The translations under genes were made by a program, and so were the position numbers. From the IMG/VR virus record IMGVR_UViG_644736364_000008: DNA of 64,000 bases, one strand, 5' to 3'. Shown here piece by piece: positions 1,980-50,235 of this stretch (position 1 is its first letter; every line of letters starts with the position of its first letter). The DNA comes from a virus (lineage: Duplodnaviria; Heunggongvirae; Uroviricota; Caudoviricetes). The notes beneath the pieces were generated by a model. That model was not told the origin of the DNA, did no database searches, and saw only the letters and a program-made list of their open reading frames with translations.

Positions 1980-3080
1980 TTATTCCATTTCAAGATCATC
2001 AATCTTCACTTCGAGTTCAATACTGGTCGTAAAACCATTATCCGGGCTGACGGTATGAGTCAGAGTCGTAATGGTCCATTCCGCATCATCTATCGGTTGT
2101 TTAAAGCCACTAACTTTCACTGGCATTTCCGTGTAAAGATCTGCCCGCCCTTCCGCCAGTTGTAGCGAGAATGACGCAACGCCGCGTTGCAGGCGTTCCC
2201 ACTGCATTTTCGCTGCCCGTTCAGCGTTGCTCCGGTTGGCATAAGTGCGATTAAGTACCAGCACGTTTTCATCCGTACCCACCAGGTAATCGCCCTGCTT
2301 CGCTTCCGGCTCTTTCTTCTGCTTCTTAGTTCTGCGCTTACGCTTCACCGTGGTGCTTTCTTTCTTCGCAGGTTCGCGGGTATGCAACCAGCTGGCAATT
2401 ACGCCCGTGTAGGCTCCGCGATCTGCCAGGGTAAATCGGTGACTGTCGCCGTCCTTGCGTGTGATAGTGATCACTGGCAGAGGTTTACCAGTGGCGCTTT
2501 TGCCCTGCCCCTGCCGGATGAATAACAGATTGCCATTTTTCACCGACGCGATGGCACCGTACTGTCGCGCCAGCCGCATCAGAAAACTGCCGTCACTCTC
2601 ATTAGTCTGGTCTATATGCTCCACGGGCTTATCCGACAGGTCTTTACCCAGTGCCATCTTCAGCTTGTGCCGCGCGGCTATTTCCTTCACCACTTCCCCG
2701 ACGGTGGTCTTATGCCACGATTTTTCACGGCGGGTATTCAGCGTTTCCCGAAAATCAGCACTTCGCGCCCGGATAGTCAGGCGGTCCGGTGCGCCAGTGT
2801 GTTCAATCTCGTCCACTGTGAATGCCCCTTTCGGGAAAAGCGGCTGCCCCTTCCAGCCCAGCGCCAGCGTAATAACCGCACCACGGCGCGGCAGCACGAT
2901 TTTTCCGTCAGCGTCATCCAGCTCCAGATCAAGCTGGTCCGCTTCAAAGCCCCGGTTATCCGTCAGCGTCAAACTCATCAGGCGGTTATCCAGCACAGTG
3001 GTGATATCCCTGCCCTCAATACTGATGCTGAATGCGGGAGTTTTGTTGCCTTTGTTAAGCAGTTCAGAGCTGAAATTCAC
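1980..3080 (-). CDS. Tail protein D (P2 gpD-like)
   Basis: 366-aa ORF at the end of the tail operon, downstream of U and upstream of ogr as in P2. Confidence 0.85.
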   Translation of the reverse strand: MNFSSELLNKGNKTPAFSISIEGRDITTVLDNRLMSLTLTDNRGFEADQLDLELDDADGKIVLPRRGAVITLALGWKGQPLFPKGAFTVDEIEHTGAPDRLTIRARSADFRETLNTRREKSWHKTTVGEVVKEIAARHKLKMALGKDLSDKPVEHIDQTNESDGSFLMRLARQYGAIASVKNGNLLFIRQGQGKSATGKPLPVITITRKDGDSHRFTLADRGAYTGVIASWLHTREPAKKESTTVKRKRRTKKQKKEPEAKQGDYLVGTDENVLVLNRTYANRSNAERAAKMQWERLQRGVASFSLQLAEGRADLYTEMPVKVSGFKQPIDDAEWTITTLTHTVSPDNGFTTSIELEVKIDDLEME

Positions 3081-3562: not shown

Positions 3563-6500
3563 GCGTCGTATCCCCCCTGATCGCTGTAGTTACTCCTGGC
3601 TTTTGCCTTCAGCCTGCGTTCACGTTCATCAAGCTGGCGTGCCACCTCCCGCGCAATATCCTGCGCACTTTGTCCTGGCTGCGTCTGAATGATGATCTGC
3701 GTCGGTGCCTCAATCCGTTGAACGAGTGGCACAGTGGCTGCGCGACTCACAATTGCTTCTCCACCTTTCGCGGGAAGTGCCAAGGGGTGCAACGGTGGAA
3801 GCTCTGCTGGCGCGGCAGCAACGCCCATCATTCCGGCAACAACGGCAGCCAGTGCAGCTGTATTTCTCCGGCTGGTCACATTTGCCGGGCCGTTAACAAT
3901 TTCCGGCCCGTTTTCACCGACGATGCCAAACTGCCCGCGCGGGATATACCCGCCGCTGTCATACATCCCCGCAAAGCCATATCCCCATGATGGAAAACCA
4001 CCCGATGGCATCATCACTTTACCGTCTGCATTCACCGTCGCAGGTTGCTGACGCGTCACGCTTTCCGGCAGTTTTGCCTTTGCGGCCTCTTTACTGACAA
4101 TGCCGAGCTTCTCCAGCAACCAGGAAACGCCGGATTTCAGGGAGTCCAGCGGATGCATGACCATATTCAGCCCTTCCGCCAGTGCCTCCCCGAATCGCCG
4201 CCCCATTGCCGCTGCGCTCTGCAGTTCGGCAGAGGTCGACTTAACGGGCGTCAGTAGATCAGTAAACCAGCCCCACAGCGCCTGCACTTTGTCGCCAATC
4301 CACTGGAACACGGGCTTAAGCGGTTCGAACGCTGCACTGATGGGACCTGCCGCCGCTTTGAATCCTTCCACCACGCCACCGAGAAATGCGGTGATAGGTT
4401 GCCAGTATTTCCAGACAACCAGCGCCACGCCCGCCAGTGCAGTAACCACAAGACCTATCGGACTGAGCAGAGCACCTAACAGACCAGATATGGCATACAG
4501 GGCAACGCGCAGCATCGCCAGTGGACCAGATGCCAGTACTCGCAGCACCGTGCCTGCGGCGGCCAGTCCACCGCGCAGTACCGCCAGAGGATTCATAAAC
4601 ATCACAGCAACAGCACGTAAACCGGATAATCCAGACCGCAAAAGTGCAACCGGCGCACCTGCTACAGTTTTCAGGACATTTCCCGTCAGTGATGCCGTGC
4701 GGCGCAAAGACGACAACGGCGCAGTAAGTAAACCTGCGGCGTTGCCCGATGAAGCAAGCCCGCGTCGCAGCAGTGCCAGTGGTGCGCCAGCCAGCCAGGA
4801 CAACGCGCTGCTGGTTCGAGTTACTGCTGCCGTAACGGAAGATAACGTTTTGATACCCAACACAGAGAATCCCAGACGGATCACTGCCAGCGGCCCCAGC
4901 ACTGCAGCCAGCGCCACCGCTAAGGTGCCGAGGCCGACGGTAACCGCAGCCACAACAGCCGATGCTTTCATCAGTGTGCCTGTCAGTTCCGGGTTAGCTT
5001 CCACCCAGCGACGCAACGCCCCCGTGACGCTTTTCACCGTGTACAGAATATCCATCAGCGGCTGGCGCAGCGTTTCGCCCAGGCTGCTGAAGGTGTTCTG
5101 CGCTCCGGTTTTGACCAGCAACCACTGCGCAGAAAGTGAATCCTTGTTAATGTCGGATTCTTTCTGCATGGAGCCAAGCGCATCATTGCCCGCTGTCAGT
5201 TTTAACTGACGCTGCAGTTCCGGCAGGTTGTTTGCCAGTTTCGCCGCGTCATCGCCAAACTCTTTACCAAACAACATAGTCATGGCAGACAGGCGCTTGT
5301 CCTGCGGCAGCGCGTTTACCTTCTCCAGCACGCGCTGGATGGTTCCCATCGCATCCTTCGTCATCTGCTTTTCAATCACTTCAGGATTGAGTTTCAGCAG
5401 ATTCATCCCTTCAAAGAAACTCTTGCTTTGCATGGTGGCAATGGACAATTCACGCACCATCGCGTTTGCTGCACTGGCTGCAACCTCTGGCGCAGCGCCC
5501 AGTGTCAGGAAGGTGGAACCCAGCGCCGCCGCTTTACGATAATCCAGACGGTCAGCCACACCGCCCAGACGTTGCATCACATCAATGATGTCTGCCCCTT
5601 TCGACATGGCGTTATCATCCAGATAGTTCAGCGCATCACCGAGCTGTTCAATATTGCGGGTGGGGATTTTGTAGAGCTGGGCGATTTTCCCCAGACTTTC
5701 TGACAGTTCATCCGCTGGCAGCTCAAAGGCTGTTGCCGCCTTTGCTGCCGTACTGGCGAAGGCCAGCAGGTCACGTTTCTGATCTTCCCAGCTGTCGTCA
5801 GGGTTTGCGACGTTCATGCGCGCACCACCTTCAACCAGTGCAGCGAAGTCCACCGCACCGTTTTCCATCGGCAACTGTTCGCTGGCAGCCTTGATGGCAT
5901 CCTGCATTTCATAAAAACGTGCAGTGCGGTTGCCATTATCGTCACGCAGACCACTGACCTGCTTTGCCACACCTTTCATGGCATCTTCCATGCTGGTATA
6001 GCTTTTTACTGCCGCCATCACTGGCGCACCCATTGCCAGCCCTGCAGCCGTGGTGGTGGCTCCGGCACCTGCAATACGATCACGCACCTCCAGCGAACGG
6101 GCATAACTGGCACGCGCTGCATTCATCCTGCGCTGAGCTTCCCCCAGTCGCTTCAGCCGCGCCTCCTGTTTCGAAAGTTCCTGGTTATAACGTGATGTTT
6201 CACGGGCTAAACGGGCAGTTGCTCCCGCATCGTCTTTCGCAGAAATTCCCGCCCGGTACAGTTCAGCACGCACAAGCGCCGTCTGCCGCTGCAGCTTTTT
6301 CTGGCGTTCTTCCAGGCGCTGAACAGCCAGCCGTTGACGGCCCAGAGCAACAACCTGACGTTGCGAAGGCGGCCCCATCGCTCCCAGTTCCTGACTGAGC
6401 AAATTTGCACGCTGGCGGGCATAGTTCAGCCTGTCGCCTAATTTCTGATTTTCTGCCTGCAGCTTTCGGAAGCTGTCCAGACTGCTCCCGGCCTGATCAA

Positions 6501-24307: not shown

Positions 24308-25717
24308 TTACTCATCTACTCTGATTTTTTGTTTTTTATTATTTTGAGTTAAGACATTTATGGTAATAGATGTATACGGATGAAAGTCAGGCACTATACT
24401 TTTAACCTCTCCATTTTCAAGAAAATGATGTGCTATTGAAGGAAATAAATCAGGATCTACAGGATATTTAGCATTAGGATTATGATACATATTTAAACCT
24501 TCTGCCCATGTTTCTGTAATATCGCCTTCTTTCACTTCAAAACTAAATGCTGCTGGATATAATGCCTCTGGGTCATGATCATGGCAGTAACCACTCCTAA
24601 ATAATCTAAGGTCACTTCTTCCAAAACCAGCCAGTTTTCCCATCCGATTAAACTTCGATATAGTACCACTATTAGAACTAAGGACGGCCGAAATATTTTC
24701 AGACTCATCCAAGAAGAAAAAGCCTGAAGGAATTTCCTTTTTCTCAAATTGATGCGATATAATTTTCTTAGTTGCTAAACTGTAACATCCATCTTCAGAT
24801 TTAACATGCTCATAGCGAATACCATAAAGATACTGCCAAAGTGCACTATGGGACCAAATCATAGAGTTTGGTTCATGAAAATCAGCAATTGCGAAAATTA
24901 AAGGATTCCCCTTAACATGTTCTAGATCCCAGTATCGAGTTTTCTTTTTCAGTTTAGAATAGAGAGAACTTCCAAATTTAATCGGCATATAATTCTCTAT
25001 TTTCTCTAGCAATTCTTCCTTACTTTTAGGTTCAGATAGCATTTCAGATGATTGATTAATATCATTCCCTGTTGGATTAACCGTTACAGCTTCAATGCAA
25101 ATAGTATTACCATACTTACGTGCCACATAATCAGGGGCATTAAACTGCCTATCTAGCCAAAAGTGTTCCTCTCGTAAATATGCGAAAAGATATAACTCCC
25201 ATAGCCGGGCATCAAAACCTGTTGTCTGAAACTGCTCTATAAAATTCCCGTCGACATCCTCAAAATGATTCATCATTTCCTTGATTATCCCTGTTGCAGG
25301 CGACCAGTTCGCATATTTACCAAATAATGAAAAATGATGATGAAGTTTATCTGGTGTAACTATAGGTGTGAATAAATCCATTGCTTTATAAGTTTCATCA
25401 CCTTGTGGAAATACTTTTACGTTTAATTTAGTATGCTTCCGCATTAATTTCTTTAGTTTTGCTCGTGCAGAATTCATTTCTGAAACACTAGTAAATAGGT
25501 CAATACATCTATATCTCCCACTTAAGTCTCTTGCTAAAACAATACCGCTATAATCTTCATCGATTTGATCCAATAATAGTGCCCCTAGCAGGAACTCTCT
25601 CGGACTACAGTACCACTCAAACTCATAGCCTAAAAGTTCAGTATTTGGCATTCTGGTCCAATCAACAAAAGCATTAAACCTCTCTTTACTCATTTTTTTT
25701 ATATCAAGAAAAGACAT
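24308..25717 (-). CDS. Hypothetical cargo protein, 469 aa (no recognisable motif)
   Basis: Low-GC ORF between portal gene Q and cos; no P-loop or nuclease motif detectable by eye. Confidence 0.6.
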   Translation of the reverse strand: MSFLDIKKMSKERFNAFVDWTRMPNTELLGYEFEWYCSPREFLLGALLLDQIDEDYSGIVLARDLSGRYRCIDLFTSVSEMNSARAKLKKLMRKHTKLNVKVFPQGDETYKAMDLFTPIVTPDKLHHHFSLFGKYANWSPATGIIKEMMNHFEDVDGNFIEQFQTTGFDARLWELYLFAYLREEHFWLDRQFNAPDYVARKYGNTICIEAVTVNPTGNDINQSSEMLSEPKSKEELLEKIENYMPIKFGSSLYSKLKKKTRYWDLEHVKGNPLIFAIADFHEPNSMIWSHSALWQYLYGIRYEHVKSEDGCYSLATKKIISHQFEKKEIPSGFFFLDESENISAVLSSNSGTISKFNRMGKLAGFGRSDLRLFRSGYCHDHDPEALYPAAFSFEVKEGDITETWAEGLNMYHNPNAKYPVDPDLFPSIAHHFLENGEVKSIVPDFHPYTSITINVLTQNNKKQKIRVDE

Positions 25718-26038: not shown

Positions 26039-26272
26039 TTAATGCAGCCAGCTGTCGTCTTCCCACACCTTCTGCATAATTTTCATCACTTGTTTTCTTT
26101 CTTCGTCCAGTTGCAGTCCGGTTAGTTCCACACCGTTAGAGCTACCTTTGCGAATGCGAATTACCGTTTTGGGATACAGGGGGCGCAGATTGCGGTAAAG
26201 CTCGGATTCAAGGGCGTCCAGGGTAGACTGGCTAATCTTCTGCTCTTTATCGATCATTATTTCAATGCGCAT
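26039..26272 (-). CDS. DinI-family protein
   Basis: MRIEIMIDKEQKISQSTLDALESEL...DSWLH resembles DinI (MRIEVTIAK...); start taken at internal Met of the 101-aa ORF. Confidence 0.65.
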   Translation of the reverse strand: MRIEIMIDKEQKISQSTLDALESELYRNLRPLYPKTVIRIRKGSSNGVELTGLQLDEERKQVMKIMQKVWEDDSWLH

Positions 26273-26282
26273 AAAAGTCACC

Positions 26283-26471
26283 TCAGCTGATGACATCCAT
26301 TGAGCGGTTGTATTCGTGGGTTCTGATTTTTGCCATGAGTTCATCAGTCAATTCAGAAACCCACTGCAGAGCCAGCCCCTTCTCTTCATCACTACACTCA
26401 CTAGCCGCTACAAGCTTAAGAAAAAAATCAATGCGCTGGAGCTTCAAAGACTCCAAAAAATAGTCCTGCAT
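26283..26471 (-). CDS. Small SOS-regulated protein (62 aa), possible antirepressor
   Basis: Internal ATG preceded by AGGAGG RBS; LexA box 45 bp upstream; upstream of dinI-like gene. Confidence 0.5.
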   Translation of the reverse strand: MQDYFLESLKLQRIDFFLKLVAASECSDEEKGLALQWVSELTDELMAKIRTHEYNRSMDVIS

Positions 26472-26624: not shown

Positions 26625-26981
26625 TTAATACAGGTTCCGCCACTGATCATCTTCCTGCAAACGCTGGTTCCGATAGAAGATACGCAGGCCTGCTCCTGAC
26701 GGAATACTGCCTCCGCGAAGGAGTAAATCGACCTCTTTCTCGCTGCCATCAAATCCTCTGGACTTCAGCTCATACACGAGCTGCAGTCGCTGATGGTCTG
26801 TAATTCGCTGTTTGTAGTCTTTACGCCGTTTCGGTTTCACCAGGCGTAACCTTGCTGCCAGTTCCCGGCGCTCTTTTTTGCTCATACTGTGCAGGTAATC
26901 GTGCAACTCCTTGTCATCCATGCTGGTAATGTCCGTTCTGGGGTCCCCATCAGCTGATTTATCTTTCTCCTGTTGGTTCAA
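26625..26981 (-). CDS. 118-aa ORF, possibly the displaced C-terminal part of replication protein A
   Basis: Begins at a TTG right at the A stop; becomes in-frame with A if one copy of the 26-bp tandem repeat is removed. Confidence 0.45.
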
Positions 26982-29065
26982 ATTTTCAGCAAGGGGACAG
27001 TTATTGCCACGAGTCCAAGGGGACAGTTATTGCCACGAGTCCAAGGGGCGCAAGCGCCCTGGTCGGCTGCCGCCTCCTGAATGTCAACGGCCTTACGAAC
27101 CATTTTCCACTTCACCGCATGAGTGCAGATCTTGCCCTCTGCAATGGGTGACCAGATGCCATAAATACGAATACCGTGATCGCCATAGGCGGTCGGCTCT
27201 TCGTTGATTTCATAAGCGGTTCTGATGAGGTGATATTTGCGGGGAACCAGTACGCCGCCCTGCTTCATGATGTAGGTGGCAAAACAACCAGCATCAGCAG
27301 CGGCTAGGATGGCATCAAGGCGCGGGTTATCCAGTACCGGCGCACCTGCTTTTTTGTCCCCCTGTTGCCTTGCCGCCTGACCAGCCAGCAATCGCAGTTC
27401 ACGGTAAGCCTGACGCCCCGGAATGCCAAAGAAGCGGAATTGCTGAACACGATGCAGAGACGCCCAGGCATTAACGTATTCAGCGTTATCACGCAGGGAT
27501 TTACCCGTTTCCTTGCTGATCTCGCCAGCCAGACCACGCCCGTCAATGTTCTTACTGATGTATTTCGCGATGTAGCTTGTTGGCGTACCTTTGCGCGGGT
27601 TTATCAGCTCAGACTTAAAGCGTGGTTCCGTGTTATTACCCAGCTCCTCGCGGTCTTCACGAATGGCAAACTTACGCAACAAAGCAGTAATGGCGCGGCG
27701 ATCTTTTTTGCGCATAAAACACAACAGGTGCCAGTGAACTGTACCGTCATGATGCGGCTCAGCCACCCGCACGCCATACCAGCGTAATCCGGCTTTGTGC
27801 ATCGCCTTACGAAATGCAGCAAACATACCGACCAGATAATCACTGCTTTGTCTTACCGTCGCATTTGTCCAGGTCGGGTTGGGCCTGCCGTTATTTAGCG
27901 TGGAATGGAAACGTGACGGACAGGTGATGGTGTAGAAAACGGCGCAGTCACCGCGCATTTCCGCGATAAGCTCCAGACCTTTAACACAGGCCATCATCTC
28001 ATTGCGGCGATGCGCAGGGTTGCTGCTGCTGGCGTTTACCACGTCTTCCATATCCAGCGTGTCGCCGTCTTCGTTCACCAGTTCATGAGAACGGAAAAAC
28101 TCCAGCGACTTACGGCGCTGCTCACGTTTATGCATCACGGCTTCATAGCTGACATAGGGAGATGCTTTTTTGCTGACCAGGCAAACAGCACGCAACTGCT
28201 CTTCCCGCCATTCGCAACGCATCTTCCATAATTTCCGATACCACCAGTCGGCGCATAACATACGCGCCAGCGAACCCGGAATGAGTTCATAAGGCACGGG
28301 TTTACGGCGGTTTCTTTTCCGACGGAGTTGCTCAAACGCAGGCGGGATAACATCCAGACGCAGGGTTTCCGCTGCCACCTTTTCCCATGTTTTGCGGATT
28401 TCTTCTGGCTTAATGTCATCGGTGGCATACAAATCACCACAAGCTGCATCAAGGCACATGCTCATATGCGCGGCGACAAGGGTAGACAGGCGCTTCACCT
28501 GATCCTGACTCATTTCAGGCAGGATCAGCAGGCCGTCCAGCCCTTCATGGCTTGCCATAAAGCGAAAAGAAGTGGATAGCTGACAGTCGCGTACATGCTC
28601 CAGTCGTTCCAGACATGGCTTAATCGTCTCACGCAAATAGCGGGAATAAGCCTTTGGCCTGCCCAGGCTGCTGAAGTATTCAATACGTTGCATCAGCGGC
28701 TTGCTGATATGGGAAGGCTGGGCGTTAACGTCCGCCAGAATGACCATGTCTGGATTAAAACGCTGCTGCTCATGCGCCAGCTTTGCCCGGCTAATGAGCT
28801 TATCCTGCTCCATTTCGCGTTGGACAGGATCACGGGATTCATTAAAGAAATAACGCTCCCAGGCCTGATCACTCAGTGCCTCGCGGCGCAGCTGTTCCTG
28901 CTCGTTATCGGCAGCGTACAGAGTGATCAGGTTTGAAAGCGCAGAAACCGGCGCGACTTCCGCCGGGTCCAGATAAGGGTTAATGGCCTTTTTCGGGCTG
29001 TTCCATGAGAACGCTGCGGCAGCCTCGTTAAAGCCGCAGCAGTTGTTCATATCGGCATGACTCAT
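26978..29065 (-). CDS. Replication initiation endonuclease A (rolling-circle, P2 gpA-like)
   Basis: 695-aa ORF containing the YIAKYISK active-site tyrosine pair. Confidence 0.85.
26991..27048. repeat. Perfect 26-bp tandem duplication (2.2 copies) at the 3' end of gene A
   Basis: AAGGGGACAGTTATTGCCACGAGTCC repeated head-to-tail, then AAGGGG. Confidence 0.85.
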
Positions 29066-29919
29066 GCACGTACTCCGTACACGGCTGAACTATCCACGCC
29101 ACGCGAATAATCAAATCCCACCCAGCAGCGTGTCCCGGAAACAGCGATGATTTCTGTTGCAGATTTACTCTCACCAGCTGCTACGCCGATGCTGCGTTTT
29201 GCCTTGATGTAGTGGTGAGTAAAATTGCGATACAGCGAACGGATCAGGGATGTGTCACTGTTAGAAACAATGACCGGATGTCCTTCTGATGACCGATGTT
29301 CAAGAAGGGATGCCAGGTGATACTGGTCATCTTCAGTGAAGCCGTCAGTGTGATAGTCGGAAAACGTACCGTCATAAGGCGGATCGCAATACACCACATC
29401 CCCCGCCTTCAACATCGCCAGCGTTTCATCAAAGCTGGCGCATATAAACGTTGCCCGCTGGGCTTTCTCTGCAAATGCGCGAATTTCTTTTTCAGGGAAA
29501 TACGGATTTTTATAATTACCGTACGGAATGTTGAAATGCCCGCTCTTGTTATAGCGACATAACCCACGGTAACCATGACGATTGAGATACAGGAAATATA
29601 CCGCTTTCATGAAATCAGTAATTTCAATGGAGTAATTAAACTCCTGCCTTATGTTGTAATAAGCCACATCCCTGTTTGCTTCCTCAAATAAAGCTCTGGC
29701 ACGAGATATAAACGCCTCGCAATCAGCAGCAACCTTTTTATAGAGGTTGATTAAATCAGGATTAATATCCGCAACAAGATAGCTGGGGTAATCCGTCTCC
29801 ATCATCACAGCACAGGAACCCGCGAAAGGTTCAACCAGTCGCGAGCCAGCAGGAAGATGTTTTTTCAGTTCGGACATAATGGCGGTTTTATTTCCCGCCC
29901 ATTTCAGGATGGTGCTCAT
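29062..29919 (-). CDS. DNA adenine methyltransferase (Dam-like, orphan)
   Basis: [11 protein letters not shown]...FAGSCAV (AdoMet motif) ... DPPY (motif IV); ATGA overlap with the upstream gene and 4-bp overlap with A. Confidence 0.85.
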
Positions 29920-30143
29920 ACAACACCTCCGTTGTAATGTTTGCCTTTCAGCTCTGCGATTTCCTGACAGGTAATGCAAAGCTGCACTCCAGGAATGGCG
30001 CGGCGTCGTGCTGGCGGAATTGGCGCTTCACATTCAATACAAAGCACACGAGACACGCCCGGTGTTTTGGCACGGGCAGCACGGATATAGCGCTGGCGTT
30101 CTTCTTCAACGCGCTGCTGTACGAGATCCATTGCATCTGCCAT
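29916..30143 (-). CDS. TraR/DksA-family C4 zinc-finger protein
   Basis: CIECEAPIPPARRRAIPGVQLCITCQ. Confidence 0.6.
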   Translation of the reverse strand: MADAMDLVQQRVEEERQRYIRAARAKTPGVSRVLCIECEAPIPPARRRAIPGVQLCITCQEIAELKGKHYNGGVV

Positions 30144-30382
30144 TAGTGGATCTCCTGCGCTTCGTTCTGGATTGCTTCAGCAGTCACACGCAGCAGTTCT
30201 GCCGCTTCGACGTGGTTTAGCTGGCGGGATGTGATATGACACGCCAGGCTATCAAGGCGAGCTGCCATTGCTTCAGCCCTTGCCCGGCGTTCTTCCAGAC
30301 GAGCCTCTGTCAGTAAAATATTAAGCCCTGCATCATCCGGTCCGGTTTTAGTCGTGAGGGTTTCAATATTACGCATAATCAA
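30143..30382 (-). CDS. Hypothetical early protein
   Basis: 79-aa ORF in the early operon. Confidence 0.45.
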   Translation of the reverse strand: MIMRNIETLTTKTGPDDAGLNILLTEARLEERRARAEAMAARLDSLACHITSRQLNHVEAAELLRVTAEAIQNEAQEIH

Positions 30383-42595: not shown

Positions 42596-43338
42596 TATGC
42601 TGCTCTCACGATATAGTTAAATGCAATGTTGCGTGGACGGGTATCGACGGGGTTAACGGCCACTGTACCCGACACGGACTGGTCATTACCGTTGCTAACG
42701 GTAATGTTACTACTGGTTGATCCAATCCCTACTGAATCGGTAAATTTAGCACCTGAGCCGCTCAAAGTTCCCGAGATGATAGCTAGCTCCACATAAAAAG
42801 TACCTACAGTTGGCTCTTGTGTTGACAGCACCGCACGCCTTGAATCAACGCCGCGCCCATCATCCCAGCCACGAATAAACTCACCACGTAAATCAGGCAA
42901 TTTATTTGTCGGATAAGCCTTTGCCAGTTCCGGGTATTCTTCAGCAGAAAAAGCCGCACCGTTGCATTTCAGCCAGCCTGTTGGCGGTGTGGCTGAAGGC
43001 CATGGAACAGGCACACCAACAGGTAATGCAGAGCCTTCTCCCAAACCAAGGTTTTCGAGAGCCGTTTTCACCGTGCCGTCCGATTTGATATCGCTAAACG
43101 GATTCTTGCGGCTTAACAGCAGCGCACGAAGCGCGGTAAGCAGCTGGTCGTGCCGCGCCTTCTCCAGACTGGCACCGGATGCCTCCACCACGCTGCAGAG
43201 TTCTTCCTGCAACATGTCAAAGTAGTCATCATCCAGATCGGTGGCAGGCGTGCCTGTCTGGGGGTTACCACGGGTAAAACCGTTCTTACCCGCGCCGAAC
43301 TTATCCTTCTGCGCGGTTTTCGTGTCTATACGATGCAT
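42595..43338 (-). CDS. Tail fibre protein (constant N-terminus plus variable C-terminus)
   Basis: 247 aa; shares [40 protein letters not shown]...[15 protein letters not shown] with P2-like H. Confidence 0.8.
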
Positions 43339-43341
43339 GGA

Positions 43342-43926
43342 TTACTCCGGATATTTAAAAATTACGTAGGTATGCGAAGGGCAGAGTTTGTTAAGCACAC
43401 ATTCGACGACGGTGTCGCCCCAGATACGCAGCGCGGAATCACAGGGATCGCCACATGTCATCCAGGTGCTGTTGGTGGCGGCTGGCATGTTGACCTGCCA
43501 GTAATACCGCCATTCCGGCGCATTCACCGCGTCAGTACAGGCCGATGAGCAGGTGAACGTGCTTTTGTCGTATCGCGTGATGGTGGCGTCTGGTCTGCCC
43601 AGGGCAGCAAGCTGTGCAAGGTAAAAATCCTCATTGATGCCGCCCGCCAGGTTAACCTTCGCATCCAGTCGTTGCTGACGCTGGCGAAGGGTCTGTGTTC
43701 CTGCGGGAATACATTCATCCGGCAGGCCGCACAGACGCTCCCAGCGATTTATCAGTTCGGTGGTGGTGCGCGGATCCAGCTCCCGCATCAGGGCATCCGC
43801 ACGCTGATGAACGCGGGTTAATGACTGTGCCGCACCGGCAATCGCCGGATCGCTGGCTGACCACGCCGGACCGGGCGGCAGCAGTGCCGACAACAGACGG
43901 ATGTAATCATCGTTTGTCACGCCCAT
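43342..43926 (-). CDS. Baseplate protein (Mu gp48 / e14 YmfQ-like)
   Basis: 194-aa ORF between baseplate J-like gene and tail fibre. Confidence 0.6.
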
Positions 43927-44975
43927 GAAATCGTCCCCAGAACCGCCAGTTCATTTTTTGCAATGGAGATATTTTCCGCCGGTGCAAGCAATTGATGGCT
44001 GTATTCCCCGTTCGCACCGGAAATCGCTTCACTGATACGCGACACCTTCAGTTCTCCCTGCGGATAACCATCACGCAGCAGGAACGAACGCAACTCCGCG
44101 GTGATGGCAGCCCGTATTTCCGGTGTATCCGGCGTCACACGGATATGAAAATCCACCGTATGCGCCACCGGCCTGAACACATACAAATCAGAGCCTGCCA
44201 CCGGGGCCAGTGGCCCGATATGTTGTCTTGCCGCCGTTTCCGTTGATTCTTCCGGAATGGGATTAATCAGGTCACTGCTGGCAATCATCACACCGACAGT
44301 CCCCGTTCCCATCCAGTGACGGTATGCCCATGCGCGGGTAATGCCGGGCAATTCTTTAGCCCAGACAACATAGTCCCCGTCAGCCCCGCCCTGAGGCGTC
44401 CAGTAATACCGCTCAATGACGCGGGCGCGCCACGTTTCCAGCTCTTCAGTATCAAATCCACCTGTCAGAGTGTCTGCCACGCCGGAAGACGGCAGACCAT
44501 TAACCGGCGTGACCAGGATTAATGACGTACCGTCGTCAGCGTTACCGACCGCGCCTGCACTTGAGCAGGCGATCGGCACGCGCAGGACACCACCGGCGCT
44601 GGTTGCATCGGCAGTTGCCGTGTACTGAATCAGGTCATCGCGCTGAATAACACTCCCGGCGGTCACCTTCAGGCCATCGCTGACGCCTTCCCAGCGCATA
44701 TACCCGCTGGCAGTCGTGGCCCCCTTGCGCGGACACCGTTTCATCGCAGCATGTCGCGCCAGCCAGGACTCATCGCACAGGTCAGGCAGCATGTTCATTG
44801 CCAGATAATCGATGTACCCGTAAACCGTATGCAGCGCCGCCGCATACACCTTTGCCCGCACGTCTTCATCCATGCGCCGGAGCGTGTCGCTGACGTCCAG
44901 CCTGGCGAATAAATCGTTACGGAGCATACTGATATTTTCTGCCAGCGTCGGGCGCTGAAATTCACTGTCCGCCAT
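43917..44975 (-). CDS. Baseplate J-like protein (Mu gp47-like)
   Basis: 352-aa ORF in Mu-type baseplate order. Confidence 0.7.
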
Positions 44976-45390
44976 GCGTTATCGCACTCCACAGATCATC
45001 TAAAGAAATCATTACCGGTCCGTCACGACGCCAGAGAGTGATACTGTTACCCAGTTCATTAATCCCGGTGCGGAGGATATCCAGATCAATACGGGACACC
45101 ACGCCGTCATCAATCATCCATTGCAGGCATTCGCGGATATACCCCCTTACCGTCTGCACCAGCTGATTGGTCAGTTTGCTGCGCTGAAGCAGCCACAGTC
45201 GGGAGCCGTAACGGTCATTCTGTACCGCAGGCCAGGTATCCCCCCACCATCCCATCGGGACGTCGGCGTTGTCATCAGGCTCCGCCCGCCGCCAGGTAAA
45301 CAGGGAAATCACCACGGCGCGGGTCAGCGGATCCAGCGGTGCGCTGGCGCAGGTGCGTTTACCGTTCACCGTCAGCCACAGTTCCATCAT
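44962..45390 (-). CDS. Baseplate wedge protein (gp25/W-like, Mu gp46-like)
   Basis: 142-aa ORF between the V-like and J-like genes. Confidence 0.6.
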   Translation of the reverse strand: MMELWLTVNGKRTCASAPLDPLTRAVVISLFTWRRAEPDDNADVPMGWWGDTWPAVQNDRYGSRLWLLQRSKLTNQLVQTVRGYIRECLQWMIDDGVVSRIDLDILRTGINELGNSITLWRRDGPVMISLDDLWSAITHGGQ

Positions 45391-45935
45391 GCCTCCATCG
45401 CTTTATCAGGTTTGTCGGTGTTACTGCCCTGACCGTTCTCTCTGTGACGATGCCCGTTATAGGCAAGCCGCATCGCTGACATGGTGGTGCCGCTGGAGTC
45501 GCACAGGTCTTTCACCTGTCCTGTCACTTCCAGGTCCATTTCAAAACGTGCTTCAGGTGCATTGCGAAACGTGATCGTTTTACCTGCACCGTCCACCACG
45601 ATCCCCTCCCGGGTCAGCGTCACAGACTGCCCCTGATCGTCATAGACCGCCACCTCACCCGTCTGCAGCCCTTTCAGGCGGTAGCGCCGGTCCGACACCG
45701 TAACAACCACCGCATGAGAACGGTCACCATCCGGAAACAACACCACCGCTTCCGCACCGCTGTTTGCCCTTGCGGTAAAACCGTAGGGTTCAAGATGTTC
45801 AACCCCGGCTTTGGGTTCACCGGCAATCAGGGACACATCCACGGTCTGACATTTCGTGGCGGCACTGATGCTTTTCACCACTGCCCGCCCAATCAGGCCG
45901 AGGAGTTGTCGCTGCATGGCTTCAATCGTACTCAT
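45387..45935 (-). CDS. Baseplate assembly protein V-like (Mu gp45-like)
   Basis: 182-aa ORF downstream of the hub gene. Confidence 0.65.
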   Translation of the reverse strand: MSTIEAMQRQLLGLIGRAVVKSISAATKCQTVDVSLIAGEPKAGVEHLEPYGFTARANSGAEAVVLFPDGDRSHAVVVTVSDRRYRLKGLQTGEVAVYDDQGQSVTLTREGIVVDGAGKTITFRNAPEARFEMDLEVTGQVKDLCDSSGTTMSAMRLAYNGHRHRENGQGSNTDKPDKAMEA

Positions 45936-47014
45936 CAGAACGGGTCCTCCTGTACTCTGGCTTTTTTCTTTTTCCGCGCGCCGGGGGCTTCGGGTTCAGG
46001 CAGATAAGCATCAGGTGGGCCGACACGGATTTCCGTCAGGGTGCCGTTCTGGTCCTGAGTAAACGTGACTTCCGAGACAAGCAGTTCGGTATTGTCGAAA
46101 CCACAGACCGGATCGAAGACAATCACCCGCTGGTTGGGCTGCCACAGCGTACCGTTACCCTGTCGCCAGCCCTGCACCACATAGGTGGTTTCATCCGTCC
46201 GCGCCGCCCGTTGTCGGGCTTCAAAGTCAGCACGCGCAATACAGCCTGCCCCCGTAGCCTGCCCTGTCTGCCTGATATACATCGGACGGTAACGGGCAAT
46301 AAATGCGTCCTCTGTGCGGGCCCGCAGCGCGCTGGTGGTGGCCTCACCGAAATCATCGTCGTTTCCAGCACGCTGCCCCGCCACCTGGTAAACAGAAAAC
46401 CGCTCCCGGATACTCTTCTCCGTATCGCAGGAAAGGATGTTTTCCCCGAGTACCAGCGCAGTATGTGCCCGCGTTGAGCCAATACCGCCAATCACCAGCC
46501 TGCCGTGTGGGTCGTCGTAAGCCAGTGCCTGCTGCTGACCGAGTATTTTGTTGATTACCTCAATCACCGTTTCACCGTGATCGGGCTGGACGTCAGGAAT
46601 AACACCCGACGGCGCACCGTTGTTCACCACCTCAATGCCGAAAGGCGCAGCAAGCGCCTGCGCAATCTGTACCAGCGATCGTCCGTTAAACTGTGTCGGT
46701 TCGGCTGCACAGTCAATCAGGTCAGCGGTCAGACTGCGTCCGGCAATACCGGTGCTGACCGAACGGGCATCGTAACGAACGGGCGTCGCCTCCACCCAGC
46801 CGGTGATCACCAGCTCATCACCAATCAGCACCTCCACTTTTGAACCGTTTTTAATGCGCGGCTGAAGCGTGGTGATACCCTCATCACCCGGCCACTGGCG
46901 GGTGATCTCCACACTGAAATCCCGCGCCAGCCGTTCAATACCGGCACCGATGCGCACCGATGTCCAGCCATTCCACTCCCGGCCATTTACCCGTAGCGTG
47001 ACGTTATCGTTCAT
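45935..47014 (-). CDS. Baseplate hub / tail protein (gpD-like, Mu gp44-like)
   Basis: 359-aa ORF after the DNA circularisation gene. Confidence 0.65.
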   Translation of the reverse strand: MNDNVTLRVNGREWNGWTSVRIGAGIERLARDFSVEITRQWPGDEGITTLQPRIKNGSKVEVLIGDELVITGWVEATPVRYDARSVSTGIAGRSLTADLIDCAAEPTQFNGRSLVQIAQALAAPFGIEVVNNGAPSGVIPDVQPDHGETVIEVINKILGQQQALAYDDPHGRLVIGGIGSTRAHTALVLGENILSCDTEKSIRERFSVYQVAGQRAGNDDDFGEATTSALRARTEDAFIARYRPMYIRQTGQATGAGCIARADFEARQRAARTDETTYVVQGWRQGNGTLWQPNQRVIVFDPVCGFDNTELLVSEVTFTQDQNGTLTEIRVGPPDAYLPEPEAPGARKKKKARVQEDPF

Positions 47015-48381
47015 TGCACTGGCACCTTCAGAGGGATCACCGGCACAAAGCCGGGATGCGTAATGGCATTACGCCGGATAATGTCCGCGTCACGCGCCGC
47101 GTTATCAAACCAGGTCGCCGCCAGCACCAGCGCGGGTAAAACCTCATCCGGTGTGCGCTGAATGATCCGTGCAGACTGTTCAAGGCGCGTGTTGATATCC
47201 GCATTCAGATCTGCTTTCACCCGGCGCAGCGCCAGAAACAGCACATCACTGGTTGTACGGGACAACTCCTTATCAATTGCCGTATTCAGTGTGTCGCGAA
47301 TGTCGGTCAGTTCTTCCCACGTTGGCAGGTCAACCGTGTTTTTCACCGCCGGTGCATTGTTCAGTGCCGGATGCGTGACAGAAGGCCAGCCGGTGCTCTG
47401 CGCGGGTGTTGTTGACTGCCCCACTGTGGCATTCTGCATCACCGCGGAAGTTGTGGGCGCAGGCAATCGTGTGACGGCATACGCCGCTTCGCTGATTGCG
47501 GTCGTACGAAGGGTGCTGGCAACCACGTTACGCTGCTGCGTCGCCGTGGCGGTGGTTTTACTGTCCGTTTTCCAGACGCCGCGCGGTTGCAGATCGCTGC
47601 CGAGGCTGACACCGGAAAGCGTTTTGATCATGGTGACCAGGTCGCTGGCGTTACCATAAAGGCGTTTCCCGGTACGCCACATTTTCTGCACCTGCTCAAC
47701 GAAATTTTTGCCTGACGATGGCGGCGGCAGAAGTACCGAGATATCCCCCTGCAACAGCCTGGCGGCATCCGATACGGCAGAATCCACCACTTTCATCGCA
47801 TCAGAAACATACCCAAGCATTGTGCTGGCATTACCGACGACGTCGTTCTGCACAAAATCTGCCACGCCATCGATACTGAAACCACTGAAGCTGTCACTGA
47901 TGCAGTCATCCAGTGCAGAACAGGATGACATCAGCGTCTGCGCCGTCGCCGCACCTGAAGTGGGGTAAGAGAGTTCTCCCGCTTCGACAAACTTCAGGTC
48001 AAAGCGGACAATACGCCCTTCACTCTTCGATGTGCTGACCCGAACTTCCCCGTCAACACAGACTTTCAGCTCACCGTAAGTCGGATGGACAAGCGTGCCG
48101 GGACCGGGTTTATTCAGCGCGTCAATCAGGCGATCGCGCTGGTCAAAGCAGTCATCTCCCACCACATAAGCTGTGATGGACGGGCGGAAAGTGATTTTCC
48201 CCAGGTCTTCGGTATAGGGTTTGTCGCGGTTCGGGTATTCGTGCGTTTCCACACGACGACCGGTTCCCGCACTTTCTTCTTCAACCTTAAACGGCACACC
48301 GCGAAATGACGCGTCCTGAAGTCTGTCTTTCCACGTCATATAAACTCCGTACATAAAAAATCCCACCGGAGTGGGACTCAT
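47011..48381 (-). CDS. DNA circularisation protein N-like (Mu gp43-like)
   Basis: 456-aa ORF containing MTWKDRLQDASFRGVPF, downstream of tape measure. Confidence 0.65.
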   Translation of the reverse strand: MSPTPVGFFMYGVYMTWKDRLQDASFRGVPFKVEEESAGTGRRVETHEYPNRDKPYTEDLGKITFRPSITAYVVGDDCFDQRDRLIDALNKPGPGTLVHPTYGELKVCVDGEVRVSTSKSEGRIVRFDLKFVEAGELSYPTSGAATAQTLMSSCSALDDCISDSFSGFSIDGVADFVQNDVVGNASTMLGYVSDAMKVVDSAVSDAARLLQGDISVLLPPPSSGKNFVEQVQKMWRTGKRLYGNASDLVTMIKTLSGVSLGSDLQPRGVWKTDSKTTATATQQRNVVASTLRTTAISEAAYAVTRLPAPTTSAVMQNATVGQSTTPAQSTGWPSVTHPALNNAPAVKNTVDLPTWEELTDIRDTLNTAIDKELSRTTSDVLFLALRRVKADLNADINTRLEQSARIIQRTPDEVLPALVLAATWFDNAARDADIIRRNAITHPGFVPVIPLKVPVQ

Positions 48382-48399
48382 TAACAGATTAATTTTTCA

Positions 48400-50235
48400 T
48401 TACCTGCCAAAGCGCGTATAGCCAACATCATGGCTGACATCAAAACCGCTGGATCGCGTTTCCATAACCCGCATACCCGGAGGTGAATTCACAAAAGAGA
48501 CCTTGATCTCACCATCAACTTTTGGCGCAGAAGCTTTGTTAATCATGAAGGGATTCGGGCCTGTGGCACCGGAGGCGTTGTTTGACTGAGCCGGATCCAC
48601 CGCCTGATAAGGTGTGTATCCCCGTGCCGGTATTCCCGTCCCATAAGCATCATAAGCACCCGCGCCCCACTGCGCAGAGTTAATGGCATCGACCGTGTCA
48701 CCGGAACTGTCGGTAAACCACTCAATAATTGGCTTCAGCTTGTCCCACATATCCTGAAACCACTTAACAACCGGTCCCCAGTTATTGATTACCATCCCCA
48801 GCGGCGACCAGGCAAAAACCTTCTTCAGAAGTTCCCGGCCAGCCTCAAAATAAGGACCAATGGTTTCCCAGAGCTTCTTGAAATAAGGTCCGACAACATC
48901 CCAGTTAGTGATAATTAATCCCGCAGCCAGGGCTATCGCCGTCGCAATCATGCCAATCGGCGTCATCGACATGATCCTGCTGACAATACTGATGGCACCG
49001 CCAACGCCCATCAATCCCAGTTTCAGAATCGCAAGACCGGCAGCAAGCCCGACGACGCCGCGAATAACCCGGGGATTTTCATCCGCAAACTTCGTGAATT
49101 TCTCCCCCAACTCCCCCAGCCATTGCGTGATATTTTTAGCGTCACCAGAAAATGCGCCGCCAATAGCCGCAAGGCCGTTAGTTGCGGTCCCTGTCATTGC
49201 CTCCCACAGGTTGGACAGCGTACCAAGCTGTGCCTGAACACGTTTATTCAGACTGGCCTGTTTATTCATCTTCTGCTGGATCTGGTCGTAGCCATCCTTT
49301 CCTTTATCGATTAGTGCATTGACCACCTGAAGGGTTTCGGCATCATCACCAAATATTGCCTTAAGTACACCAGTTCGCTTAACGTCGGTCAGTTTTCGCA
49401 GCTTTGCCAGTTGCCTGAACATGTTATCAAGACCGCCAAAACTCCCTTTGCCGTCAGTAAAATCGAGCTGTACCCCGAGTTTCTGGCGGGCCATGACTTT
49501 ATTGACGTCCCTGATTTTCTTAACGCTTAATCCGGACTGGATAACTTTTCGCAGGGCGTTACCTGCCGACTCCCCGTTCATCCCCATCTGATCCATCATG
49601 ACGCTGATGGGGGCAAGGCTCTGTGCAGCCTGAAGACCGTCCTTGTTCACCATCTTCAGAACAGAGCTGGTTTTAGTGAAGAAGGACAACATGTTGGTAT
49701 CGTCAACGCCCAGATAAAACGCCTTCTGGATAGTGTCGAACAGCCCCATCATGTCTTCTGACGCCGTTCCGGTAGCATCCTGCATCTTTGCGGCAAACTC
49801 GGCAGCCGCTTCCGGTGTTTTTTTCAGTTGTACCGCAAGATAAGCTGTCGCTTTACCCACACCGCCAAGAATGTTTTCTGCCGGGATCCCCTGACGCACC
49901 AGCATCTGCATCATGTTCTGGAAATCAGCCGTTGTACCGGGTAGCTGGTTACCCAGACCAATAGCCAGTTTATTGATGTCCTGAAAGCGCTTTCCGACCT
50001 CACCGTTCGCATCCATCATGGCAACTTTCAGCCCGGTGGCGGCGTTTTCCTGATCGGCATAAGATTTCAGGGAAAGCGTCAGACCCGCAGCCAGTCCGCC
50101 ACCAAGCGCCAGCCCACCCTGTGACGCTTCTTCCGCCTGGCGTTTAAATCCCCGGATTTTCTTTTGCATTTTCGACAGCGCGGGAGAAAGCCTGTCGACA
50201 CCGGTGATCAACGCCTTAAGCTCAAATTCAGCCAT
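48400..50235 (-). CDS. Tail tape measure protein
   Basis: 611-aa ORF with hydrophobic Gly/Ala-rich central segment, downstream of the chaperone pair. Confidence 0.8.
   Translation of the reverse strand: MAEFELKALITGVDRLSPALSKMQKKIRGFKRQAEEASQGGLALGGGLAAGLTLSLKSYADQENAATGLKVAMMDANGEVGKRFQDINKLAIGLGNQLPGTTADFQNMMQMLVRQGIPAENILGGVGKATAYLAVQLKKTPEAAAEFAAKMQDATGTASEDMMGLFDTIQKAFYLGVDDTNMLSFFTKTSSVLKMVNKDGLQAAQSLAPISVMMDQMGMNGESAGNALRKVIQSGLSVKKIRDVNKVMARQKLGVQLDFTDGKGSFGGLDNMFRQLAKLRKLTDVKRTGVLKAIFGDDAETLQVVNALIDKGKDGYDQIQQKMNKQASLNKRVQAQLGTLSNLWEAMTGTATNGLAAIGGAFSGDAKNITQWLGELGEKFTKFADENPRVIRGVVGLAAGLAILKLGLMGVGGAISIVSRIMSMTPIGMIATAIALAAGLIITNWDVVGPYFKKLWETIGPYFEAGRELLKKVFAWSPLGMVINNWGPVVKWFQDMWDKLKPIIEWFTDSSGDTVDAINSAQWGAGAYDAYGTGIPARGYTPYQAVDPAQSNNASGATGPNPFMINKASAPKVDGEIKVSFVNSPPGMRVMETRSSGFDVSHDVGYTRFGR

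Follow-up and report, generated by a model that had tools for sequence, protein, structure and literature searches.

A recurrent 26-nucleotide duplication beginning at the predicted replication nick site and probably disabling initiator gene A of a P2-like prophage

The A proteins of phages P2 and 186 carry a Phage_GPA domain with the HUH and YxxKY motifs, and the 3′ third of their genes contains the core of the replication origin (a hairpin, the nick half-sites CTYG/G, a spacing of 10 nucleotides (nt) and AATAACTGT; a slash marks a nick or a junction throughout), followed by the segment for a C-terminal tail. Illegitimate recombination and aberrant termination at rolling-circle origins are known for the filamentous phages M13/f1 and for pC194-type plasmids, and illegitimate recombination at such origins was reportedly described by Michel and Ehrlich in 1986 and by Gros and colleagues in 1987. 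The DNA analyzed here, called the window, is a stretch of 64,000 nt from the virus record IMGVR_UViG_644736364_000008, and it contains a P2-like prophage (Elveevirus-type, Peduoviridae) that adjoins ssrA in Escherichia coli MS7163 and N53. The element under study is a tandem duplication of 26 nt within gene A of this prophage. Very probably, gene A is disabled by this duplication, which is recurrent, is not native to these phages and starts at the predicted nick of the origin, with the action of protein A itself as the favored source.

The window gene shares each of the above features with A of P2 and 186, and differs from both in being interrupted by a duplication of the origin core. Its intact form would have 804 amino acids (aa), compared with 761 in P2 and 694 in 186, its nick half-site reads CTTG where theirs reads CTCG, and CCCCTTG recurs 26 nt farther downstream. 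The likeness to the M13/f1 and pC194 systems lies in junctions exactly at the initiator nick, here a predicted one, in look-alike half-sites that would act as termination signals, and in tandem origins that would permit gain or loss of the intervening DNA. The difference is that those systems are experimental, concern plasmids and filamentous phages, and yielded mostly deletions or hybrid replicons, whereas the present case, from a tailed temperate phage, consists of natural, recurrent, short tandem duplications in the gene for the initiator itself, with a putative role for protein A.

The truncated gene A occupies positions 26978..29065 of the minus strand and encodes a P2 gpA-type HUH rolling-circle initiator of 695 aa. 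Residues 188-510 cover the full Pfam profile PF05840, Phage_GPA (E = 4e-128, 427 bits), and both the HUH metal-binding motif (HHDGTVHWH, aa 438-446) and the two-tyrosine motif (YIAKYISK, aa 498-505) align with those of P2 and 186. By domain and motifs the gene belongs to the P2 gpA family, and it departs from that family only in its frame, which is divided into products of 695 and 118 aa in place of one of 804 aa. The residues are native up to 683 and are followed by 12 frameshifted residues and a stop. The detached 3′ part, corresponding to native residues 687-804, is an open reading frame (ORF) of 118 aa at 26625..26981 of the minus strand, whose TTG start overlaps the stop codon of A in ATTTGA.

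The cause of the division is the 26-bp duplication, which shifts the frame. The only array detected by Tandem Repeats Finder spans 26990-27048, with a period of 26, 2.3 copies, 100% matches, no indels and a score of 118; with 33 consecutive matches at an offset of 26, the repeat cannot be due to chance. Read on the minus strand, the array consists of CCCCTTG at 27048..27042, a first copy, GACTCGTGGCAATAACTGTCCCCTTG, at 27041..27016 and a second copy at 27015..26990. An earlier note on this DNA had described a perfect duplication at 26991-27042 with an additional partial third copy, which is the same array shifted by one base, and had correctly read the last residues of A and the stop that follows them. 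Its proposal that removal of one copy joins A to the downstream 118-aa ORF is borne out: the deletion made in silico leaves an uninterrupted ORF of 2415 nt, encoding a single product of 804 aa. The length of 761 aa that it gave for P2 A agrees with the P2 record (28034..30319).

The annotated relatives all harbor one copy of the unit and an intact gene. When the window was compared with 50,697 phage records by BLAST, 56 records spanned the region, and 801 query bases paired with ∼775 record bases, 26 fewer. A single A coding sequence of 2412-2415 nt is annotated in vB_EcoM-813R9, Klebsiella phage 4LV2017 and Escherichia phage Cartapus, and in all annotated relatives, RE2010 among them, the unit is single and A forms one ORF of 803-804 aa; the A span of the window minus 26 nt is exactly 2415 nt and 804 aa. 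The Elveevirus phages 4LV2017 and Cartapus, together with vB_EcoM-813R9, resemble the window in DNA identity across A (92-96%) and in gene order (dam, A, a small ORF, a dinI-like gene and defense cargo), and differ from it in their single origin copy and intact A. E. coli MS7163 and N53 both match the window at 100% identity, and the identical locus in MS7163 is annotated by PGAP as 'replication endonuclease, frameshifted'.

The two-copy state is thus a mutation and not a native iteron, because relatives hold one copy and an intact 804-aa A and PGAP marks the frameshift. The earlier note had weighed a frameshifting duplication that truncates A against a native iteron-like feature. The former holds. 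Of the latter, what stands is the notion of a replication element acting in cis, since the unit that is repeated is the nick-site core of the origin; the two-copy state itself is not native. Both a native iteron and a native split gene with programmed frameshifting are rejected as candidates, the first by the single copy in more than 100 related loci and in all phage records, the second by the single frame of A in functional relatives. Phage 186 was proposed as a relative that might carry the identical two-copy repeat with the same stop; the alignment with A of P2, 186 and related prophages shows one copy of the element in every phage compared, 186 included. The similarity of 694 aa (186 A) to 695 aa (the truncated product) is a coincidence, because 186 A continues for 83 codons beyond its single origin copy. 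The pseudogene status of A had already been annotated, and what is new is the recurrence, the position at the predicted nick site and the wider set of insertions.

The repeated unit was placed on the origin by comparison with annotated nicks. The P2 record gives a 'nick site at ori' at 29892, inside A, and the 186 record gives an origin at 28576, placed by similarity. According to PMC8537503, the P2 origin at 29,892 was determined by experiment, and Peduovirinae have a conserved nick-site sequence. From the nick onward P2, 186 and the window align without gaps: the nick region is GCGCCTCG/GAGTCCTGTCAATAACTGT in P2, GCGCCCTCTCG/GAGTTCTGTCAATAACTGT in 186 and GCGCCCCTTG/GACTCGTGGCAATAACTGT in the window, the last being homologous to the P2 region at the corresponding place in A. 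The spacing from the nick to AATAAC is 10 nt in all three. In the window the predicted A-protein nick site, CCCCTTG/GACTCG, falls in copy 1 at 27041..27042 of the minus strand, and the duplication creates a second, identical predicted site at 27016/27015.

Directly 5′ of the nick, sequence inspection and DNA folding reveal a GC-rich hairpin, GGGCGC-TT-GCGCCC, at 27046..27059 of the minus strand. Hairpins occupy the same position in 186 (GGGCGC-TTCT-GCGCCC) and P2 (GCGGC-ATC-GCCGC), and the end of the hairpin lies 4-6 nt from the nick in P2, 186 and the window. The conserved origin core, GCAATAACTGT, is found at 27023..27033 of the minus strand, with a second copy at 27007..26997, and the form in which it is shared with P2 and 186 is TCAATAACTGT. 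The phiX174 origin, annotated at 4306 with the sequence CCCCCAACTTG/ATATTAATAAC, also contains AATAAC. Of 104 single-copy loci, 102 have an identical 26-nt core, although their flanks (700 nt upstream and 330 nt downstream of the core, 1,030 nt in total, compared over 127 loci) differ at a median of 45 positions. By homology to P2 and 186, the element is identified as the P2-family origin, lying inside the A coding sequence and not an iteron array, and the duplicated 26 nt begin exactly at its predicted nick (27042/27041).

The part of A encoded by the origin core is followed by a variable, gap-rich linker and then by ∼80 strongly conserved residues (...KERRELxARLRxVKPKRRK...). Among the PHROG profiles, phrog_91 ('nicking at origin of replication') matches this tail at profile positions 656-759, and P2 A and 186 A contain counterparts of it. 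A Pfam search of the tail returned nothing, and an AlphaFold2 model of it is helical with low confidence (predicted local distance difference test score, pLDDT, 62.5; predicted template modeling score, pTM, 0.32). The ratio of nonsynonymous to synonymous polymorphism (pN/pS) is 0.18 for the tail compared with 0.03 for the 233 codons upstream, values that indicate that the detached tail is under purifying selection. Because the variable linker precedes the conserved tail, in-frame insertions at the nick are tolerated, and a +26 insertion detaches a selected domain. After induction, the prophage thus most probably replicates poorly or not at all. The 118-position profile phrog_23581 matches the detached tail ORF from end to end, and split A genes are already among the PHROGs source genomes as separate 'proteins of unknown function'. 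Stand-alone tail ORFs of 86-99 aa in protein databases were considered as further split A genes and rejected, their loci having a single-copy origin and scattered homopolymer frameshifts; many of these loci are in low-quality assemblies, and the ORFs have no bearing on the hotspot.

Carriers of the allele were counted with junction-specific 30-35-mers; a 31-mer over the new junction cannot seed on single-copy DNA. The junction 31-mer is present in seven of 5,426 complete E. coli genomes (MS7163, N53, M8, two Res13 isolates, EC261 and 19KM1863), which are among ∼2,470 genomes with the core, and in 0 of 50,697 phage records. Anchored gap-pattern scans added five +26 loci in IMG/VR and three in metagenomes; one metagenome match, L027, fitted the anchors by chance and was discarded. 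Among the GTDB species representatives scanned, no variant alleles were detected. The neighbors of the carriers vary, with dam or a hypothetical gene upstream and differing defense cargo downstream.

For almost every +26 carrier, the nearest flanking haplotype is that of a non-carrier. Over 1,030 nt, strain 19KM1863 differs from a single-copy locus at one position and L029 is identical to L024, a +6 locus; L023 has seven differences from phage Cartapus, and the remaining carriers have 13-60 differences from their nearest neighbors. Fitch parsimony on a neighbor-joining tree requires 10 changes for 12 carriers, which is indistinguishable from random labels (mean 11.6, minimum 9). The flanks thus indicate that the +26 allele arose independently about ten times, on ∼10 unrelated haplotypes of related prophages. 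In all carriers, deletion of one copy restores the full ORF of 804 or 790 aa, and A has no second lesion. The allele is accordingly recurrent, young in each lineage and confined to prophages, given the scattered haplotypes, the non-carrier neighbors, the sole lesion and the absence of the allele from the phage records. The earlier note's word 'recent' is consistent with this, as each allele is limited to one or two near-identical genomes. In one carrier, L020 (2820-2895), the two copies differ by one base, AACTATCC compared with AACTGTCC, and the ACTATCC variant also occurs at a single-copy locus; the mismatch reflects either an older duplication or conversion between alleles.

The 26-nt unit is one of several insertions at this spot. 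The hexamer GACTCG is found there in tandem in two, three, four or five copies, in frame and encoding (Thr-Arg)n, in 10 E. coli genomes and seven metagenomic or viral contigs, and the expanded state requires nine changes for 10 taxa on the tree. A 21-nt duplication with the junction TGTCC/GACTCG, without microhomology, was seen once. In the +6 to +24, +21 and +26 alleles alike the second copy opens with GACTCG, which forms the predicted 5′ side of the nick, so that the junctions of all insertion classes coincide with the nick as placed by homology. Two pairs of loci have identical 1,030-nt flanks and different origin alleles: L011 (ETEC-2265) and L012 (strain 120899) carry five and four hexamers (+24 and +18), and L029 and L024 differ only in the origin allele, +26 in one and +6 in the other. 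The origin site changes faster than flanking substitutions accumulate. The reciprocal 26-nt deletion junction was found in 0 of the 5,426 E. coli genomes and 0 times in IMG/VR, and a shorter spacing between the anchors was likewise absent from both sets.

The two recurrent insertion sizes were compared with the sequence that follows the predicted nick. In P2, 186 and phiX174, as in the window, the 5′ half of the nick site reads CTYG/. Only two CTYG motifs lie within 40 nt downstream of the window nick, and they end at +6 (ACTCG/) and +26 (CCCCTTG/), the sizes of the recurrent inserts. Aberrant rolling-circle termination by protein A is the source favored here, with moderate confidence. In the rolling-circle scheme, the initiator stays on the 5′ end, and a second tyrosine cleaves and the strand is closed (PMC5714925); according to Khan (2005), as quoted in PMC5037232, synthesis runs ∼10 nt past the nick before termination. 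As a round ends, synthesis would pass the regenerated nick, and protein A, linked to the 5′ end (GACTCG...), would cleave and join at a downstream look-alike CTYG/ instead of the true nick, closing the circle with 6 additional nt at ACTCG/ or 26 at CCCCTTG/. The observed alleles, and no deletions, are what mis-termination at such pseudo-sites would yield. A +26 genome made in this way could still be packaged and could lysogenize, and would then be trapped as a prophage defective from birth, which is proposed as the reason why variant alleles are found only as prophages.

Several points weigh against this reading. The read-through step requires a nick on the A-coding strand, a placement that the orientation of the phiX174 origin and the 5′ hairpin favor by analogy. 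The +21 allele, a single case, ends at TGTCC/, where no CTYG site is present. No insertion was found at P2-type (at least 120 loci) or 186-type (22 loci) origins, samples without power at a rate of ∼0.6%, and the IMG/VR single-copy sample (at least 120 loci) provides only bounds on frequencies. The degree of disablement is also arguable, as the truncated A retains an intact catalytic domain and translation of the tail ORF from the overlapping TTG is possible in principle. Finally, the +26 product is exactly what slipped-strand mispairing between CCCCTTG repeats is expected to yield.

This last point is the basis of the strongest alternative, ordinary replication slippage between two 7-bp CCCCTTG direct repeats 26 bp apart, which is a plausible if tentative explanation. 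Under it the duplication is real and disabling, the position of the nick is incidental and the GC hairpin possibly helps. The single-copy allele has CCCCTTG on either side of a 19-nt segment and the product is CCCCTTG-19-CCCCTTG-19-CCCCTTG; the changes among two to five hexamer copies resemble microsatellite slippage, and the P2-type and 186-type origins, which are without such repeats, are without insertions. The locus would then be akin to a microhomology-mediated frameshift pseudogene in a decaying prophage, with which it shares the 7-bp flanking repeat, the out-of-frame insertion, the 'frameshifted' label and the restriction to prophages. It differs from such a pseudogene in that the allele recurs about ten times, in that neither E. 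coli genomes nor IMG/VR yielded the reciprocal deletion, which slippage normally produces at least as often, and in that companion insertions with little or no microhomology share its boundary. The first hexamer duplication recurs ∼9 times with only 1 nt of microhomology, the 21-nt duplication has none, and all three classes share one boundary, the predicted nick. Aberrant termination by protein A is favored over slippage; the two routes are not exclusive, and changes among two to five hexamer copies could arise by either.

An extension of the A-mediated reading, that the origin within gene A of Elveevirus-type P2-like phages is a self-inflicted hotspot at which protein A writes +6 and +26 into its own gene, with +26 as a reversible on/off state of replication, is unlikely. 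Under it, two tandem nick sites would let an active A start at one and terminate at the other, healing the +26 insertion precisely. Full-text searches of the literature turned up no account of a hotspot for recurring duplications at the P2-family origin, and a search with the origin sequence as a text string returned chance matches only.

That the two-copy state is functional and maintained, either as an iteron-like doubling of the origin or as a split A translationally coupled at ATTTGA, is very improbable. Both ORFs are intact in all carriers, the TTG overlaps the A stop codon, the one-base difference between the L020 copies implies that the allele persisted for some time, and the 118-aa family phrog_23581 matches the split ORF along its whole length. 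The state is nevertheless rare (7 of the ∼2,470 core-carrying E. coli genomes and none of the phage records), PGAP treats the gene as a pseudogene, and the carriers are scattered tree tips with single-copy nearest neighbors, so that no lineage maintains two copies. A sequencing or assembly artifact is scarcely credible: in public assemblies, homopolymer errors account for other split A genes, and nothing specific suggests an error here. An exact duplication of 26 nt is not typical of such errors, and the allele occurs in eight contigs as well as in seven complete genomes, which come from different laboratories, hosts and countries.

Taken alone, the locus is one more prophage pseudogene, already flagged by an annotation pipeline. 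The wider pattern is a specific, recurrent route to the probable loss of replication competence in P2-like prophages, located at the initiator's own predicted nick site. The natural products (+6, +21 and +26, with no deletions) can be used to test the termination fidelity of a two-tyrosine HUH initiator in vivo. The 31-nt junction probe distinguishes disabled from intact A, which is of use in judging the mobility of prophages that often bear defense cargo such as PD-T7-1.

Other features of the region were recorded alongside the repeat. In L303, a Klebsiella pneumoniae UCI 26 scaffold, the terminase and portal region in opposite orientation replaces the sequence left of the origin hairpin at ∼2950-3000; the junction contains N (GAGTGNTTGCGCCCCTTGGACTCG), and either the scaffold was joined here or a rearrangement has its breakpoint at the origin. 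In the window, a scan for promoters and terminators around the repeat detected nothing relevant. Gene A and the dam-like methyltransferase gene upstream of it (29979..29062) overlap by 4 nt at the A start codon (ATGA, 29062-29065), an arrangement that suggests translational coupling of the kind that the 186 record notes between orf84 and A.

Downstream of A, as in the SOS-inducible phage 186, is a DinI/Tum-like gene at 26039-26344 of the minus strand (Pfam DinI, phrog_189), which suggests that the prophage is SOS-inducible. Between this gene and the late operon lies a 469-aa ORF at 24308-25717 of the minus strand, which strongly matches the anti-phage defense protein PD-T7-1 (PADLOC PDLC04073, E = 1e-196) and also matches phrog_8571. 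It occupies the variable cargo position of P2-like phages, at which relatives carry a retron effector, HEPN, DarT/macro, AIPR or OLD-like AAA genes. The late region, from 1,063 to ∼24,200, is 95-97% identical to P2-like phages, and the prophage accordingly looks otherwise complete. The transfer-messenger RNA gene ssrA (tag ANDENYALAA) is located at 698-1060 on the plus strand, with P2-like similarity beginning at ∼1063, and is the likely attachment site of the prophage. A second, unrelated prophage extends from ∼42850 to 50000 and beyond, with tail, baseplate and tape-measure genes 97-98% identical to those of the Shigella phages SfII, SfI and SfV.

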